From the sequence record NC_070873.1: a stretch of DNA of 64,000 nt; one strand, 5' to 3'. The notes beneath the pieces were generated by a model. That model made no database searches. It was not told the origin of the DNA and saw only the letters and a program-made list of their open reading frames with translations. Position 1 is the first letter of the stretch. Each line of letters starts with the position of its first letter. This stretch comes from Escherichia phage St11Ph5. Shown here one piece after another: positions 31,748-36,117 of the stretch. A program made the position numbers and the translations under genes.

Positions 31748-32551
31748 ATGTCATTGTTCAGTAATCTGAAAGAAAAAACCAAAAACGTTGAAGCTGTTAA
31801 AGACTCCCTTGGTGGTGGTGGCTTCGGTGCAAAAGAAACCGATATCTACACTGGTACTGTAAAAGTAGCTTACGTAGGCAAAGCTGACTCTGGTGCAGAT
31901 TGGATGCAGTTAATCATTGAAGACCTGAAGAACTCTGATGGCGTACCTGCTGGTGAGTTCCGTGCTCAGGTGTACTTCACTTCTGGTAATGCTAAAGGCA
32001 ACAAGCCGACTTACGAGAAGAACGGTAAAGAGTACTTCTTGCCTGGCTACACTGTCATTAACGACATGATGCTGATGGCTACCGGTACTGAACTGCCTGA
32101 AGCTGACTTCGAAGAGAAGATTGTTAAAGTCTATGACTTCGATGCTAAAGCAGAAGTTAATAAATCCGTCATGGTTCCGGTTGACCTGGTAGGTCAGACT
32201 GTTACCTTCGCTCTGGAAAAGGTTCTGGAATCCAAGCAGGTTAAAGGTGACAACGGTTACGTTGACTCCGGTGAAACTCGTGAAGTAAACGAGATTCAGA
32301 AAGTGTTTCATCCGGAACTGTTGGTCACAGTCGTCGAAGGTCAGGAAGCAGAGAAGGCTGAGAAAGAACTGACCCCAGAACTGGCTGTATTCTATGCAGC
32401 ATGGCTGGAAAAGAACAAAGGCAAGACTCGTGACAAGACTAAGAGTTCTGCTGGTGGTAATGGTAAAGGTGGCTTACCTCCTAAACCAGGTGCAGGTGCT
32501 GGCACAGGTACTGCTCCTGCTGGTGGTAAATCACTGTTCGGTAAACGTTAA
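31748..32551 (+). CDS. single-stranded DNA-binding protein candidate (N4 SSB-like size/position; 267 aa)
   Basis: Position in replication module, about 265 aa, Gly/Pro/Ala-rich flexible C-terminal tail; no canonical OB motif recognised by eye. Confidence 0.4.
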   Translation: MSLFSNLKEKTKNVEAVKDSLGGGGFGAKETDIYTGTVKVAYVGKADSGADWMQLIIEDLKNSDGVPAGEFRAQVYFTSGNAKGNKPTYEKNGKEYFLPGYTVINDMMLMATGTELPEADFEEKIVKVYDFDAKAEVNKSVMVPVDLVGQTVTFALEKVLESKQVKGDNGYVDSGETREVNEIQKVFHPELLVTVVEGQEAEKAEKELTPELAVFYAAWLEKNKGKTRDKTKSSAGGNGKGGLPPKPGAGAGTGTAPAGGKSLFGKR

Positions 32552-33105
32552 TGAAAATCCCAATTGTCGGTGCAGACATTAGTCTCCGCAATTGGGGTTT
32601 AGCTCGTGGGATGCTGGACATTGAGTCCGGTGTCTTCGAGCAGGTCGAACTTAAACTGGTTCAAACTGAAGTTGACCACAACAAACAAGTTCGAACCAAC
32701 TCCAAAGATATACAAGCCGCTCACGATTTGTTTCTTGGTTGTGAGGAATGGTTACGGTCTGCTAAAGCAGTATTCGTAGAAGTACCAGTAGGCTCTCAGT
32801 CTGCTAACGGTATGAAATCCTATGGAGTATGCGTAGGATTAATCGGTGCATTCCGTGCATTGGGTTGTCCAATCTTTGAAGTATCCCCAATTGAAAACAA
32901 ACTTGCACTGGTCGGTGATAAAACTGCATCCAAAGACACGATGATTCGTGCTGCTCATGCCATTTATCCTGAAGCCAACTGGCTCACTGATAAGAAAGGT
33001 AAACTTCTAAATAAGAATGAGCACTTAGCAGATGCAATCGGTGCAATCCATGCTGGTGTAAATCTCCCAGCTTTCCAGAACCTCATTAAGTTATTAAAGG
33101 CGTAA
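32551..33105 (+). CDS. RuvC-like Holliday junction resolvase (184 aa)
   Basis: N-terminal MKIPIVGADIS and C-terminal LADAIGAIHAG resemble RuvC-fold catalytic segments. Confidence 0.55.
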   Translation: MKIPIVGADISLRNWGLARGMLDIESGVFEQVELKLVQTEVDHNKQVRTNSKDIQAAHDLFLGCEEWLRSAKAVFVEVPVGSQSANGMKSYGVCVGLIGAFRALGCPIFEVSPIENKLALVGDKTASKDTMIRAAHAIYPEANWLTDKKGKLLNKNEHLADAIGAIHAGVNLPAFQNLIKLLKA

Positions 33106-33106
33106 T

Positions 33107-33550
33107 ATGCAAATCATTTTGAACCAGTCCGAAGTAGAAGCTGCTGTACAGGCTTATGTCGATGATCAAATCAATCTTGCTGGTGACATCAATATTGTCA
33201 TCAATGCAGATGGTACTGCCTCCGTTGGTATTAATGAAGAGGTAAGTCATGATGATGACACCCCACCCGTGGTAGAGAAGAAGACTCGTCGTTCTCGTAA
33301 GAACCCACAAGAAGCTAAACATCGTCCGGTAGAACCAGAACCGGAAGAAGTAGCTGAAGAGGTAAAGGTAGAAGAAACCCAGACCTCTACTGGTGGTCAG
33401 AACGAGAGTTCTACGCCGGAACCTGAAGAAGAAGCAGTAACTGAACCAGAAGCACAAGAAGAAGTTGTGCAGGAAGAAGTTAAGGCTGAAGAACCAGCAG
33501 AAAAACCTGCTACTAAGCCTTCACTGTTCGCTGGCCTTAAACGTAGTTAA
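33107..33550 (+). CDS. highly acidic Glu/Pro-rich protein (147 aa)
   Basis: Low-complexity PEPEEE/EEV repeats in the C-terminal two thirds. Confidence 0.5.
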   Translation: MQIILNQSEVEAAVQAYVDDQINLAGDINIVINADGTASVGINEEVSHDDDTPPVVEKKTRRSRKNPQEAKHRPVEPEPEEVAEEVKVEETQTSTGGQNESSTPEPEEEAVTEPEAQEEVVQEEVKAEEPAEKPATKPSLFAGLKRS

Positions 33551-33781
33551 TCTGGTAGGTGGCTCAGAAGCTGCTGCTAGGTGTGGTAGTGTTTATAGTC
33601 CTGATGCTACTACTGGTCAGGATTATAGACGTGTCGGCTCCATACATAGCTTTTATCATCACTGTCATTATCCTGTGGAAATGCAGTGGTAAACACGGTG
33701 GTGACAAGCCGCCAGAGTAACAACAACCGAACCAGTGTGCAGGAATACTCTCCCCTGTGCATTGGTTCAACTGAGGCCAAT

Positions 33782-33952
33782 ATGAACAAATTTACTATTC
33801 ACTGGTTTAATGGAAAGGTTAGTTCTTTCATGGGTGGAGAACCTGCTGAAGGAAAGAAAGCATTTCACATTGAATCAGAAGGCTGCAAAATCTTAGTACC
33901 GTATGTTTGGTATAAAGATGGTGAAGTAGAAGCATTAAAAAAGAGTAGTTAA
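33782..33952 (+). CDS. small hypothetical protein (56 aa; start moved to internal ATG)
   Basis: GAGG upstream of ATG 33782; the N-terminal part of the listed ORF lies in a likely non-coding stretch. Confidence 0.3.
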   Translation: MNKFTIHWFNGKVSSFMGGEPAEGKKAFHIESEGCKILVPYVWYKDGEVEALKKSS

Positions 33953-34352
33953 TATCGTGAAGGGTTCTGTTAGAATCCTTTGAGATAGGAACTCCTATCA
34001 TAACCTTTCTTAACTTAATCTTTGCCGTATGGCACTGACGCTAGGGTTTATGCCCATCCGTCAGGTAGACTATTTTAAGAATGGGTTATCACAGCAAATG
34101 TAAAGCAACATTCGGGTTAATCAATGGCCTCTCCCTATAGGGGCCATTTCTGAATCTTAGGCTATATCCCAAAGGTTAGCATCTTTGGGATAAGGCTTCA
34201 GATCCCTTATCAACTAACGCTCATGCTGAGCACAACATTAACCAATAATGTCGGATAGTTCATTACGCTATTCATCCAGCATCGAGATGTTAGGTCTTAC
34301 ATGTAACATAGGGTATAAAGGGAGGACTCGTCCCCTCCCTCCTATTATAATG

Positions 34353-34422
34353 GTCGGGGTAGCACGTAGGCATGTGCAGAAGGTCGCTACTTCTCTCGCT
34401 GGTTCGAATCCAGCCCCTGACC
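34353..34422 (+). tRNA. candidate tRNA (70 nt; anticodon loop reads gt-CGC-ta), no encoded CCA
   Basis: Hand fold: acceptor 34353-59/34415-21 (7 bp, one G-U), D-stem GCAC/GTGC, anticodon stem AGAAG/CTTCT, T-stem GCTGG/CCAGC with TTCGAAT loop; short variable region is atypical. Confidence 0.4.
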
Positions 34423-34878
34423 TACTGACATCCTATCAATGAGTACATTAGGCTAACGTGCGGAGGTTTACACTGTAGCCGGTGTAGGTGGAGAAGACGG
34501 CAGGGTAGCTACCTGTGCTTAGTGTACTCTTTGATAGTTTTCGTAAGCGATTATGCGGTTTTTTAGAAATGAACCAATAACATAAATGCAAACGATGATG
34601 TTGTTCTGATGGCGGCGTAATAGCCTGTAAGTCAGCAAGGTCTTCCTATTCCTTGTAAATAAATTCGGCGCAGTGGCCCGCTGTAATTAATAATGGGCAC
34701 ACAACAGGTAAGAGCATTGGGTAATGTCAGCCTTGGTTCGAAGTCGAAAGACATGCGGTAATACCCAGCCAAAGTTCCAGTGCTCTTTCCGTTGTGGAAA
34801 TGCAAGCACAACAAGTCCAGACGATATCTGAGTGACTATAAAAACAGATGGAGCCAGGTGGAATCCCTGGCAATCAAT

Positions 34879-35270
34879 TCCGGTGTAGGTACTAGTGTCG
34901 TGCACGGCATGAGTGTTCTGGTTCGAGTCCAGACGCCGGAACCAATTACCAGTTGCACGAGATGGCTTGACATGTTCAAGTTTGGACTAAGTGTGACACC
35001 GCTAGATTGGAGGGCTGCTGCGGTAAGCTATAGACTCCAACCGGGGGTTCGAATCCCTCACTGGTAACCAATTCAAAGTAGCATTGCACTAATCCATCCC
35101 GGAGTTCAAAGACCAAACATGGAGCAGTGCTACTTTGAATTAGAAGAATTAAGGTGGGTCTGGTGAAGTAGATAGGGTTCGATTCCCTCCGGTAGAGTAA
35201 TCTACTAGCGTGCTTGGTGCATGAATAAGACTTAATACTGGTGGTTCGATTCCATCCCCCACTACCTATT
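34879..35270 (+). ncRNA. cluster of tRNA-like elements (GGTTCGAnTCC T-arms with acceptor-like 3' ends, two ending A-CCA at 34944 and 35070)
   Basis: Four T-arm motifs at 34917-33, 35043-59, 35173-89, 35240-56; acceptor partners sit 63-124 nt upstream, so canonical cloverleaves could not be completed by hand. Confidence 0.3.
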
Positions 35271-35794
35271 TGAGGTGTAACAGTTAAATCCAGTTGCCGG
35301 AAGTGCTATTCTAGATACGCTGCCAATGTGTGAACGGTAAGGCTGTACAGGACTCGGACTCCCACCTCAAACCAAAGTCGCCAGGTACTTATGGCAAACG
35401 GGTAGTAACGAACTAGTCATTCGTCAAACGCCCAACCTATTATGAGTCAGCAAGAACGCCTTCACTTAAACTTAAACAATATGAAAAGTTTCCGTAGATA
35501 CTATATAGGGGTATGTAGGGGCTACGAAGAAGGAGCCAGTTAAAGTCTGGCATGGCTCGCCTATTAATAGAGAACATAGTCCTGATTGCATTGCACTCTA
35601 AAGACAATGCCGGTGAGACAGTCCGGCACTCTAGTTATTGTAAACATACCCACTGACGAGTGGGTATGAGTATGAGCAGACTATAATGCTCAAATACAGT
35701 TATCTATTATCGGACTATCAATCCTGTTTGCTGGTACAAGCACCGGTGGTAATAGTTAACTGGCCTAACCTCGTTAGCTGCGTTAAAGCTACTA

Positions 35795-35820
35795 AGTCCC
35801 TCTTCGGAGGGACTTTTTTA
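35795..35820 (+). terminator. intrinsic terminator (AGTCCCTC-TTCG-GAGGGACT then TTTTTTA)
   Basis: 8-bp stem, TTCG loop, T-run. Confidence 0.75.
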
Positions 35821-35841
35821 TTTGAAAGTAGGAGAAATACT

Positions 35842-36117
35842 ATGGCTAAATATCGTAAAAAACCTGTTGAGATTGAAGCTTTTCAATGGGACGGTAGTCT
35901 TAATCTGAACAAAGAACCAACTTGGATAGTAGATGCTCTTCATAATGGGGTAGTCTGGTTCTCTGGGAAGGATAATAAATTATGTATCAGAACTCTGGAG
36001 GGTATCTTAACTGCTTCCCCCAATGACTATATTATCCAAGGTATACATGGGGAGCTATATCCGTGTAAACCAGATATATTCCTGGAAACCTATATCAAAT
36101 CAACAACCGTAAGCTGA
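35842..36117 (+). CDS. hypothetical protein (91 aa)
   Basis: ATG after GTAGGAG. Confidence 0.5.
   Translation: MAKYRKKPVEIEAFQWDGSLNLNKEPTWIVDALHNGVVWFSGKDNKLCIRTLEGILTASPNDYIIQGIHGELYPCKPDIFLETYIKSTTVS

Follow-up and report, generated by a model that had tools for sequence, protein, structure and literature searches.

Escherichia phage St11Ph5 (sequence record NC_070873.1), which the initial annotation, made from the letters alone, correctly took for an N4-like phage (Gamaleyavirus, G7C-like; Schitoviridae), carries a long non-coding gap at 33953-35841 of the 64,000 nt analysed here (the window). Inside the gap we identified a segment, termed the core below, that is homologous to the two-piece (permuted) transfer-messenger RNA (tmRNA) coding piece: it has a 10-codon tag frame and message pseudoknots and no linked tRNA-like domain (TLD). 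We consider it highly probable that the gap is an island of tRNA and other stable-RNA genes joined by this tmRNA coding-piece homolog. The best overall explanation, to which we assign a probability of about one half, is a processed stable-RNA operon with an orphan tmRNA message module acting on host trans-translation. The initial annotation had described the gap as an island of unusual, decayed or tRNA-like RNAs and not as coding DNA; this description holds, while the tmRNA-type tag frame and the pseudoknots had been missed.

The core consists, in order, of a fold resembling pseudoknot 1 (PK1), the resume context AUAAAU-GCA, a 10-codon tag whose stop codon lies in the loop of a helix, and the pseudoknots PK2 and PK3 (Table 1). 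Its opening, AGUUUUCG...GCGA, resembles the D-loop analogue of tmRNA, UUCGAC..GCGAC; the stretch from the resume context through the stop codon occupies 34582-34620. The predicted tag starts with AND and ends with Ala, and the SsrA tag of E. coli, ANDENYALAA, also has 10 codons. In a permissive Rfam search of the island the best match was tmRNA_permuted (31 bits, E = 7.6e-4), accompanied by beta_tmRNA, both at 34517-34669. The models tmRNA_permuted, beta_tmRNA and alpha_tmRNA match the tag region not only in the window, also in the siphovirus C1 and in phage Ag3, with E-values from 1e-2 to 4e-4. At gathering scores no Rfam family was reached across the 64-kb window.

Conservation of the tag was assessed among 55 members of the core family, collected by an IMG/VR scan with the invariant 14-mer AUAAAUGCAAACGA and from GenBank loci. 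These members hold 23 nucleotide versions of the tag and 14 peptides, including ANDDVVLMAA, ANEEMYLAVA, ANDNVFLAVA, ANDNTFLAVA, ANDDLMLMAA, ANDSEMRMVA and ANDTEFKAAA. In all 23 versions the frame is exactly 10 sense codons long, and the stop codon after them is UAA in 21 versions and UGA in 2. Internal stops are absent from the tag frame (0/23) and interrupt the other two frames in 22/23 and 18/23 versions. Codon 10 is GCG, GCC, GCU or GCA, hence always Ala, and the Leu and Arg codons vary synonymously. The ratio of non-synonymous to synonymous variation (pN/pS) is 0.59 in the tag frame vs 1.02 and 0.91 in the other frames; the search pattern predetermined codons 1-2 and some of codon 3, and the sequences are related. 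Judged by this coding-type pattern across families, the tag frame is probably under selection. The AUG frame from AUAAAUGCAA was tried as the selected frame and rejected: its ORFs (open reading frames) have 5-9 codons and variable ends, with pN/pS of ~1.

The structure around the tag was evaluated in a multi-family alignment of 31 sequences (alignment A1). The proposed helices are paired in 92.8% of the alignment cells; shifting the partners by 1-3 columns lowers this figure to 36-47%. In 12 pairs both sides are changed. The stem of the hairpin that follows the H5-like helix (H5) is found as CAAGG/CCUUG, UGAGG/CCUCA, CGGGG/CCCCG, CUGGG/CCCAG and CAUGG/CCAUG. As read by eye from the sequences and the alignment, the loop of PK2 pairs with the conserved AAUUCGG in different ways in different families: CCGA/UCGG, CCAG/CUGG (HK633), CCAA/UUGG (Felix), UCGA/UCGA (locus L016; numbers with L denote individual loci) and CUAG/CUAG (L053). 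The layout of PK2 in genuine permuted tmRNAs is alike. Stem S2 of PK3 exists in at least seven complementary sequence types of 4-9 bp. On the strength of this alignment, H5, PK2 and PK3 are backed by compensatory changes, and the core possesses both a stop codon in the H5 loop and message pseudoknots. The PK1-like fold is possible; being nearly invariant, it is unproven. Gamaleyaviruses of the ECBP1 type have other sequences in place of PK2 and PK3, and these again form pseudoknots; the ECBP1-type linker, GAUUAUCAAACGAC, resembles UAUAAUCAAACGG of genuine permuted tmRNAs.

Two-piece permuted tmRNAs of Alpha- and Betaproteobacteria, cyanobacteria and marine phages such as Melnitz (RF04321, RF01849, RF01850; PMC9004378) have many features in common with the core: an A-rich linker ending in AUAAAU before GCA, a 10-residue tag that starts with AND and ends with small or hydrophobic residues and Ala, a stop codon in the loop of the helix made by the 3' half of the tag, a following pseudoknot with S1 UGAGG/CCUYA and a 5' segment similar to the D-loop analogue. 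The AUAAAUGCAAACGA context was found in 36 other tag-bearing IMG/VR loci. ARAGORN called a tmRNA in 19 of the 36, and 17 of these 19 are permuted two-piece genes carrying that tag, in which the acceptor piece is ...GGACGCGGGUUCGACUCCCGCCAGCUCCACCA and the coding piece opens with GGGGCUGAACUGGUGAUCGACAUGCGAC. Since the linker, the type of tag, H5 and the next pseudoknot (S1 UGAGG) are common to the phage core and the permuted genes, and since the 5' end of the core, AGUUUUCGUGAGCGAC, resembles their D-loop analogue, the core is likely to descend from the coding piece of a two-piece tmRNA. The differences concern the rest of the molecule. Unlike two-piece tmRNA, the core has neither a 5' acceptor strand nor an upstream acceptor piece (T-arm, CAGCUCC-ACCA), is followed by an extra pseudoknot and long stem modules, and scores below the Rfam gathering thresholds. 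LMAA, LAVA, RMVA or KAAA stands at the end of its tags in place of ALAA, and the hosts of its carriers are enterobacteria, whose own tmRNA is one-piece.

Two-piece tmRNAs carried by marine phages have been described (PMC9004378), and an exhaustive search of 543 RefSeq phages by experts found ssrA only in mycobacteriophages, in Bacillus phage G and, reduced to the TLD, in mycobacteriophage DS6A (PMC4131195). An 'ssrA' of Felix O1 and of Moogle is mentioned in two genome announcements, which simply take it over from ARAGORN (PMC4319497, PMC4392139). Our literature search for tag peptides or 'tmRNA-like' elements in the phage families considered here returned nothing relevant.

As a rule, the core family is a message domain without a linked TLD. 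Near the 55 cores we searched for a T-arm followed by a 7-nt strand and NCCA, with a complementary 5' strand; G3:U70 was found only in true tRNA-Ala, in long-range chance pairings and in an 82-nt element of Felix O1. This element, restricted to Felixounavirus sensu stricto, lies right after the core, has no D-arm and combines the acceptor CGGGGCG/CGCCUCG with G3:U70, A73 and CCA; it is the sole alanine-type acceptor seen beside any core. It is located at 1395-1476 of L007 (Salmonella phage FO1a), is also present in Felix O1 (L009), L018 and L075, and has an anticodon arm of tRNA-Arg(UCU) type; Mooglevirus has an ordinary tRNA-Arg(UCU) in its place. The enumeration of helices in the island did not find an acceptor piece ending in GAAAACU-N-CCA, the partner for the AGUUUUC at the 5' end of the core.

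The tmRNA mode of ARAGORN, which the initial annotation had suggested as a check, is blind to the tag module: it found no tmRNA in the window and none in 52 of the 55 members. In two members ARAGORN calls the family tag as tmRNA with a spurious structure, and all three of its calls borrow unrelated tRNAs. The call in Mordin was rejected as a 750-nt construct over three genuine tRNAs, with a 5' domain taken from inside tRNA-Lys; in the rejected call in L068, a downstream tRNA was borrowed and the tag was invented. Two other candidates failed. A pairing of a strand before the core with a strand after it ('e0:d1 = P2'), which would close the message ring, fits the window and the lambdoid and Vi1-like copies and fails in the sipho-type copies, which start at the core. 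Pairing of the C1 RNA with E. coli ssrA was no better than with shuffles (duplex energy of -159 kcal/mol vs a shuffle mean of -170 kcal/mol).

Several observations weigh against a functional message module of tmRNA origin. The match to tmRNA_permuted (RF04321) has 31 bits vs a gathering score of 47, and the 113-position TLD portion of the model is deleted in the alignment. All 7-bp helices with NCCA in the island were enumerated and none has G3:U70, so that a G3:U70/A73/CCA acceptor is absent; the carrier C1 has no tRNA, tmRNA or Rfam match in its whole genome of 46.7 kb. In the sipho-type copies a classical one- or two-piece tmRNA cannot form because the promoter occupies the place of the 5' acceptor strand, and we know of no mechanism for reading a tag without a linked TLD. 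The pN/pS value of 0.59 was obtained on 24 nt of related sequences and is modest; pairing within H5 also constrains the 3' half of the tag. The PK2 loop at 34645-34648 reads CCUA in the window and in phage ShWW44, with one mismatch to UCGG at 34665-34668; it is CCGA in siphovirus C1 (otherwise 93% identical here) and in the family consensus. Finally, helices 1-3 of A1, in the 5' part of the core, are 95-97% paired yet near-invariant, so that covariation does not prove PK1, and the register of S2 of PK1 differs in the lineage of the window.

The core is widespread. A blastn search with 34430-34720 found ~100-190 nt around the tag frame in 588 phage records of unrelated groups. Carriers include Felixounavirus, Mooglevirus, the Vi1-like Ackermannviridae (Ag3, PhiSH19, Magnus), Salmonella N4-like phages, Erwinia phages, the lambdoid phage HK633 and T1-like siphoviruses of ~46 kb (C1, HC6, ZX4, BUCT610). 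The phage copies are almost always unannotated. Of 5426 complete E. coli genomes, 147 have a copy of the HK633 type, which is invariably chromosomal and in no case annotated by the PGAP pipeline; the carriers of these prophages include the O26:H11 strain 11368. Two further scans were less productive: a scan of the genome collection with GGTGTGATTAATAA gave 120 chance matches with no tag near any of them, and a viral scan with CTGGTTCGAGTCCAG gave mainly generic tRNA T-arms and re-found only the N4-like copies.

The genomic context of the core differs between phages. In siphovirus C1, whose core is 92.6% identical to that of the podovirus St11Ph5, the element is a stand-alone gene, antisense to its neighbours, with its own terminator and a promoter, TTGACA-17-TAGATT, positioned for a start ~8 nt before AGUUUUCG; a promoter of this form and a terminator are characteristic of the sipho-type copies. 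Lambdoid copies (HK633, L005 944-1900) are situated in the late leader, just downstream of pR'/qut and tR' and before the holin gene, and would be expressed only after Q antitermination. The same slot of the late leader is where Shiga toxin (Stx) phages carry tRNAs and stx. In Ag3 (L006) the core lies in a non-coding region of 1.85 kb. At 984-1049 of L006, ~190 nt upstream of that core, there is a 66-nt tRNA-like element (GGCGAGG...CCUCGCC) with an 'anticodon' loop truncated to 5 nt and no encoded CCA, which is a second anticodon-less tRNA-like RNA near a core, in addition to the one described below for St11Ph5.

ORFs for HNH homing endonucleases were seen directly after PK3 in the IMG/VR contigs L026 and L119, as well as beside or inside the RNA module in Felix O1/FO1a (L007 474-959 and 1447-1839). 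HNH genes abutting the core, together with the near-identity of cores across families, point to cassette-like horizontal spread and suggest endonuclease-driven movement of RNA cassettes among unrelated phages. In L053, an IMG/VR phage genome of 53.7 kb, a core of ~230 nt is located between 16-nt direct repeats, CTCTATGGTATGTTTA; the downstream copy of CTCTATGGTATGTTTA continues into the following gene's ribosome-binding site, an arrangement that resembles an insertion with target duplication.

The gap that holds the St11Ph5 core is bounded by a small coding sequence (CDS) ending at 33952 and a CDS starting at 35842; both bordering ORFs have strong PHROG matches, and a 3601-aa ORF shortly downstream of the island is the virion RNA polymerase. 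All ORFs within 33953-35841 are short, and a PHROG scan of the four longest found no family apart from one of 40 residues, which bears out the earlier statement that the gap has no credible coding capacity. The exception is a 64-aa ORF at 34248-34442 (+ strand) that overlaps a hairpin and a tRNA and matches phrog_37481 (40 positions), probably the product of over-annotated ORFs in related genomes and not a real protein. The island is 97.5% identical to the region with the same coordinates in Escherichia phage vB_EcoP_ShWW44, and its conservation in ECBP1, Bp4, G7C, PhAPEC5/7 and other Gamaleyavirus genomes is mosaic. Annotations of the island in Gamaleyavirus records vary, with tRNA-Thr, Ile, Cys, Xle, OTHER, Pseudo or Val features or none.

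Table 1. Elements of the St11Ph5 RNA island in window coordinates, with the evidence for each
Element	Position	Strand	Evidence
5' non-coding leader with GC-rich hairpins at ~34127-34146, 34164-34192 and 34321-34340	33953..34351	+	sequence reading, ORF list, PHROG scan
TATTATAAT	34343-34351	+	immediately 5' of the tRNA
Non-canonical tRNA	34352..34423	+	ARAGORN, cloverleaf as minimum free energy (MFE) fold, sub-threshold Rfam
Long helix 0, CUAUCAAUGAGUACAUUAGGC x GCUUAGUGUACUCUUUGAUAG, with a decayed tRNA-like insert at its tip that repeats CCGGUGUAGGU of the 66-nt unit	34434..34539	+	z = -3.9
tmRNA-like core, homologous to the two-piece (permuted) tmRNA coding piece	34536-34698	+	
Core 5' part: AGUUUUCG...GCGA, PK1-like fold, A-rich linker, invariant AUAAAU	34536..34587	+	alignment A1, pair counts
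Tag frame GCA AAC GAU GAU GUU GUU CUG AUG GCG GCG UAA = ANDDVVLMAA*	34588..34620	+	Rfam, frame conservation
H5-like helix, 3' half of tag x downstream strand, stop codon in loop	34606..34635	+	4/4 outer pairs doubly changed
PK2: hairpin CAAGG-UCUUCCUAUU-CCUUG, loop x UUCGG 34664-68	34636..34668	+	stem covaries at 3/5 pairs
PK3: GCGCAG-u-GGCCC-g-CUGUA..AUUAAUAAU-GGGC	34669..34698	+	S1 covaries at 2/5 pairs
Long helix 1, CACAACAGGUAAGAGCAUU x AGUGCUCUUUCCGUUGUGG, 50-nt insert with degenerate T-arm 34732-48	34700..34802 (helix 34700-34787)	+	z = -4.6
Conserved module GUCCAGACGAUAUCUG...CCAGGUGGAAUCCCUGG	34805..34875	+	common to N4 (96%); fold unremarkable
66-nt tRNA-like RNA	34879..34944	+	acceptor/T-arm/CCA pattern, fold, conservation
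124-nt expanded tRNA-like RNA	34947..35070	+	acceptor/T-arm/CCA pattern, compensatory changes
Long helix 2, AAUUCAAAGUAGCAUUGC x GCAGUGCUACUUUGAAUU, third paralog of the GUAAGAGCAUU / AGUGCUCUUU type	35072..35143	+	18 contiguous pairs, z = -7.2
Composite or decayed tRNA-like unit of ~110 nt, T-arms at 35176 and 35243	35153..35262	+	z = -0.8
Structured domain of ~100 nt, closed by UUGAGGUG/CACCUCAA	35270..35371	+	N4 comparison
Hairpin UCCGUAGAU..UAUAGGGGUAUGUAGGGG..CUACGAA	35491..35530	+	counterparts in N4 and in the tmRNA-like RNA genes of siphoviruses C1 and L068
Intrinsic terminator ending the island	35794..35825	+	only strong + strand terminator in 33800-35950; also read directly

The island is the stable-RNA gene cluster of an N4-like coliphage, the Gamaleyavirus version of the N4 tRNA cluster. 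This follows from the comparison with N4 (NC_008720), where the gap in the same position, 32112-33632 between gp47 and gp48, is also non-coding (1.5 kb) and holds both tRNAs (Asn, Ser, Thr and Pro, with 50-77 bits) and modules common to the two phages. Both clusters lie between the block of genes for the single-stranded DNA-binding protein (SSB), a resolvase and small proteins and the genes that precede the virion RNA polymerase, and both contain the 66-nt CCA RNA, the module upstream of it, the ~100-nt domain and the terminal terminator. They differ in that N4 lacks the tag module and its four tRNAs are genuine, and St11Ph5 has the tmRNA-like core and no tRNA that passes Rfam; ordinary tRNAs have been lost from the St11Ph5 island.

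The T-arm motif GGTTCGANTCC pointed out by the initial annotation occurs five times in the window (34401, 34920, 35046, 35176 and 35243), always on the + strand and always within the island; the expected count is 0.02, and none of 100 shuffles gave five. The first copy belongs to the one full cloverleaf, folded by hand earlier as 34353-34422 and called by ARAGORN with one more nucleotide at each end. The MFE structure of this tRNA is the cloverleaf (z = -3.2). We consider it non-canonical because its best Rfam match, tRNA-Sec with 30.2 bits, falls below the gathering threshold of 47. It has the anticodon CGC according to ARAGORN (anticodon loop GUCGCUA), a 6-bp D-stem, a 4-nt D-loop without GG, U at position 37 and no encoded CCA. 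ARAGORN labels it 'tRNA-Ala'; depending on the register, its third acceptor pair is U3:A70 or C3:G70, never G3:U70. The same tRNA is present in ECBP1. The element TATTATAAT, pointed out earlier, does directly precede the tRNA; the promoter scan made no call there. The leader hairpin at 34164-34192 can be read off the sequence itself, as reported. The T-arms at 34732, 35176 and 35243 are decayed or embedded relics.

The other units with a T-arm, an acceptor strand and CCA are not normal tRNAs, as the initial annotation had argued: the 66-nt and 124-nt units are not called by ARAGORN and have no Rfam tRNA (RF00005) match even at E <= 10, and the same is true for the 66-nt copy in N4. The alternative offered at that time, structured RNAs with a tRNA-like 3' domain, fits them. 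In the 66-nt unit, UCCGGUG at 34879-85 pairs perfectly with CGCCGGA at 34934-40 in an acceptor stem of 7-8 bp, followed by A73 and CCA. Its T-arm is UCUGG-UUCGAGU-CCAGA; there is neither a D-arm nor an anticodon, and a hairpin with a UGCA loop takes the place of the anticodon arm. The 66-nt sequence is identical in N4 and UE-S5a, the surrounding block being 96% identical in N4, and the hairpin shows compensatory changes in a Salmonella N4-like phage (L070). Some records list the unit as the tRNAscan product 'tRNA-Undet'. In the 124-nt unit the acceptor strands UACCAGU (34947-53) and ACUGGUA (35060-66) are perfectly complementary, A73, CCA and a canonical T-arm are present, and the arms at the D and anticodon positions are enlarged. 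Its fold from the single sequence is no better than those of shuffles; in close relatives the acceptor pair C3:G70 is replaced by U3:A70 and a G:C pair of the T-stem by A:U. Because of the compensatory changes in relatives, we regard both RNAs as selected structured RNAs with a tRNA-like 3' domain. The proposed pairing with distant 5' acceptor strands is perfect in these two cases; in the third, the unit at 35153-35262, the ends pair over 5 bp only (GUGGG/CCCAC) and terminate in ACC with no encoded CCA. The relic T-arms of that unit are also found in UE-S5a. Conservation and covariation, which had been proposed as checks on the island, are thus both present among its relatives.

In shape the 66-nt unit fits a TLD: it has an acceptor stem, a T-arm and CCA and lacks a D-stem and an anticodon. 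The likeness is one of shape only; no tmRNA family scores on the unit, which has C3:G70 and not G3:U70. The TLD-only tmRNA of DS6A (PMC4131195; PMC11915505) offers a parallel, being a phage-borne half of tmRNA; like it, the 66-nt RNA is ~65 nt long and has no anticodon or tag. Unlike DS6A, however, St11Ph5 has as its main element the opposite half, a message without a TLD.

Stable RNAs with tRNA-like acceptor and T-arm ends and a length of ~120-140 nt, 'species 1 and 2' (bands C and D), belong to the tRNA cluster of T4. By description, the 124-nt and ~110-nt units resemble them; to our knowledge, T4 has no tag module.

Three paralogous long helices of the type ..GUAAGAGCAUU + insert + AGUGCUCUUUCC.. 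accompany the core; their strands are kept across families, their inserts are hypervariable, and some inserts carry T-arms. Helix 0 is a sequence paralog of helix 1, and lambdoid and Vi1-like members have a similar helix ahead of the core. The strands of helix 1 are conserved and its insert is hypervariable among phages; an alternative partner, CACAAC, follows at 34797-802. The stem at 35072 noticed earlier (12-16 bp, 35072-35130) proves to be longer, and its N4 counterpart is a 24-bp helix with a T-arm cap. A long-stem unit (..GGUAAGAGCAUU / AGUGCUCUUUCC..) was also seen in L131 (1930-2050) and upstream of the core in L095 and L022; in several families it flanks the core on one or both sides. 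In architecture, the three helices are comparable to YrlA, a long-stemmed RNA topped with a tRNA-like module whose acceptor ends are not free, and like GOLLD and ROOL the island is phage-borne and adjoins tRNAs. Membership in these families was rejected for want of a significant family-model match: YrlA scored 17-19 bits vs 69, on T-arms only, and GOLLD and ROOL had no Rfam match even at E <= 10.

Other modules of the island also recur elsewhere. The module GUCCAGACGAUAUCUG...CCAGGUGGAAUCCCUGGCAAUC is 85-98% identical in N4 and in Klebsiella and Salmonella phages of 38-61 kb (9NA, Segz_1, SopranoGao and others). The ~100-nt domain at 35270-35371, which has no Rfam match, is nearly identical to N4 in its interior, and its 8-bp closing helix is wholly different in N4 yet complementary (GUGGGAUG/CAUCCCAC). 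It is also found in myoviruses of ~150 kb infecting Klebsiella, Enterobacter, Pantoea and Pectobacterium, as well as in L131 (2222-2330).

We propose that the island would be transcribed as one precursor ending at the terminator and that this precursor would be cut at the tRNA-like structures and the long helices by RNase P-type and 3'-end processing. The core may then be read on ribosomes as a template for trans-translation; that it is still read as a tag template is suggested by the conservation of its frame, stop codon and SmpB-type resume context. A phage-specific tag ending in LMAA or LAVA would be added in place of the host ALAA, ribosome rescue would be boosted or redirected, and the fate of tagged proteins during infection would be altered. 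The tRNA-like partner that delivers the template would presumably not be an alanine acceptor; the only local candidate is the anticodon-less 66-nt CCA RNA. We regard this template mechanism as a tentative proposal with clearly less than even odds. Still more guarded is the general statement that hundreds of enterobacterial phages carry an orphan tmRNA message domain whose tag is kept open by selection without a linked alanine acceptor.

The main rival is that the RNAs are decoys directed against ribosome rescue. The 66-nt RNA would titrate SmpB and the message-like RNA would sequester ribosome, S1 or RNase R binding sites, so that phage products escape tagging. DS6A does carry a TLD-only tmRNA, and the strong inhibition of tmRNA by a molecule of this kind does not depend on its being chargeable (PMC4131195; PMC11915505). 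The two halves are also distributed separately, N4 having only the 66-nt RNA and C1 only the message module, and decoys would account for the lack of alanine identity in the island. A decoy, however, has no need for a fixed 10-codon frame, a conserved stop codon and an Ala at codon 10 that is maintained through all four synonymous codons. By our analysis of the two sides, action as decoys is rather unlikely.

Less likely are the remaining alternatives. The island might be a decaying tRNA cluster, with the tag module a dead remnant, now functionless, of a formerly complete phage tmRNA, kept and spread by recombination and by homing endonucleases aimed at RNA genes. Many of its elements are plainly decayed, as the T-arm relics show, and hitchhiking would agree with the HNH ORFs at the core (L026, L119, Felix O1/FO1a), the 16-nt repeats of L053 and the horizontal transfer evident from near-identical cores in unrelated families, such as those of St11Ph5 and C1. 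Yet neutral relics would gain indels and stops. The core has stayed whole in 588 phage records, which span at least six families; four of its helices show compensatory changes, every frame is open, and some copies have dedicated promoters and terminators. We therefore consider such a relic unlikely. It is improbable, too, that the stretch 34430-35825 is one large ornate non-coding RNA of ~1.3 kb in the manner of GOLLD or ROOL, with the tag and the tRNA-like parts serving structure only. A single terminator, a chain of strong helices with the three paralogous long stems, and the joint recurrence of the modules near tRNAs in several phage families would suit such a molecule. But no match to a large-RNA family was found even at E <= 10, the modules turn up separately and their order varies from phage to phage, the encoded CCA ends imply excision into small RNAs, and the conserved frame would stay unexplained. 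Finally, a complete but unusual tmRNA whose TLD the programs overlooked, as the ARAGORN 'permuted tmRNA' with the family tag in Mooglevirus, repeated in genome announcements (PMC4319497, PMC4392139), and the Felix O1 element with G3:U70, A73 and CCA might suggest, is very improbable and for the window contradicted, given that the former is the 750-nt construct with its 5' domain inside tRNA-Lys, the latter is a self-contained minihelix 3' of the message and not a linked domain, ARAGORN made no call in 52/55 members and the enumerated helices with NCCA include no G3:U70.

The pairing of a tRNA-like and an mRNA-like part in tmRNA is regarded as indivisible. A conserved, structured message half that keeps its frame without the tRNA half would be new, and it is present, unannotated, in some of the best-studied families of coliphages and Salmonella phages and in E. 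coli prophages. The composition of the island also explains the inconsistent pseudo-tRNA annotations in N4-like genomes, and the alignment supplied here is a possible base for a covariance model for annotation. If the tag of the orphan message domain is indeed kept open by selection without a linked alanine acceptor, the module may represent a new way to load a tag template onto ribosomes, one that dispenses with a TLD or relies on a detached non-alanine carrier, for instance the 66-nt CCA RNA; alternatively, it would define a new class of phage RNAs that reprogram or block ribosome rescue and tag-dependent proteolysis of the host. Such a message half would open two questions to direct testing: by what means phages interfere with ribosome rescue and with degradation that depends on ssrA, and whether a tag template is able to function apart from its carrier.

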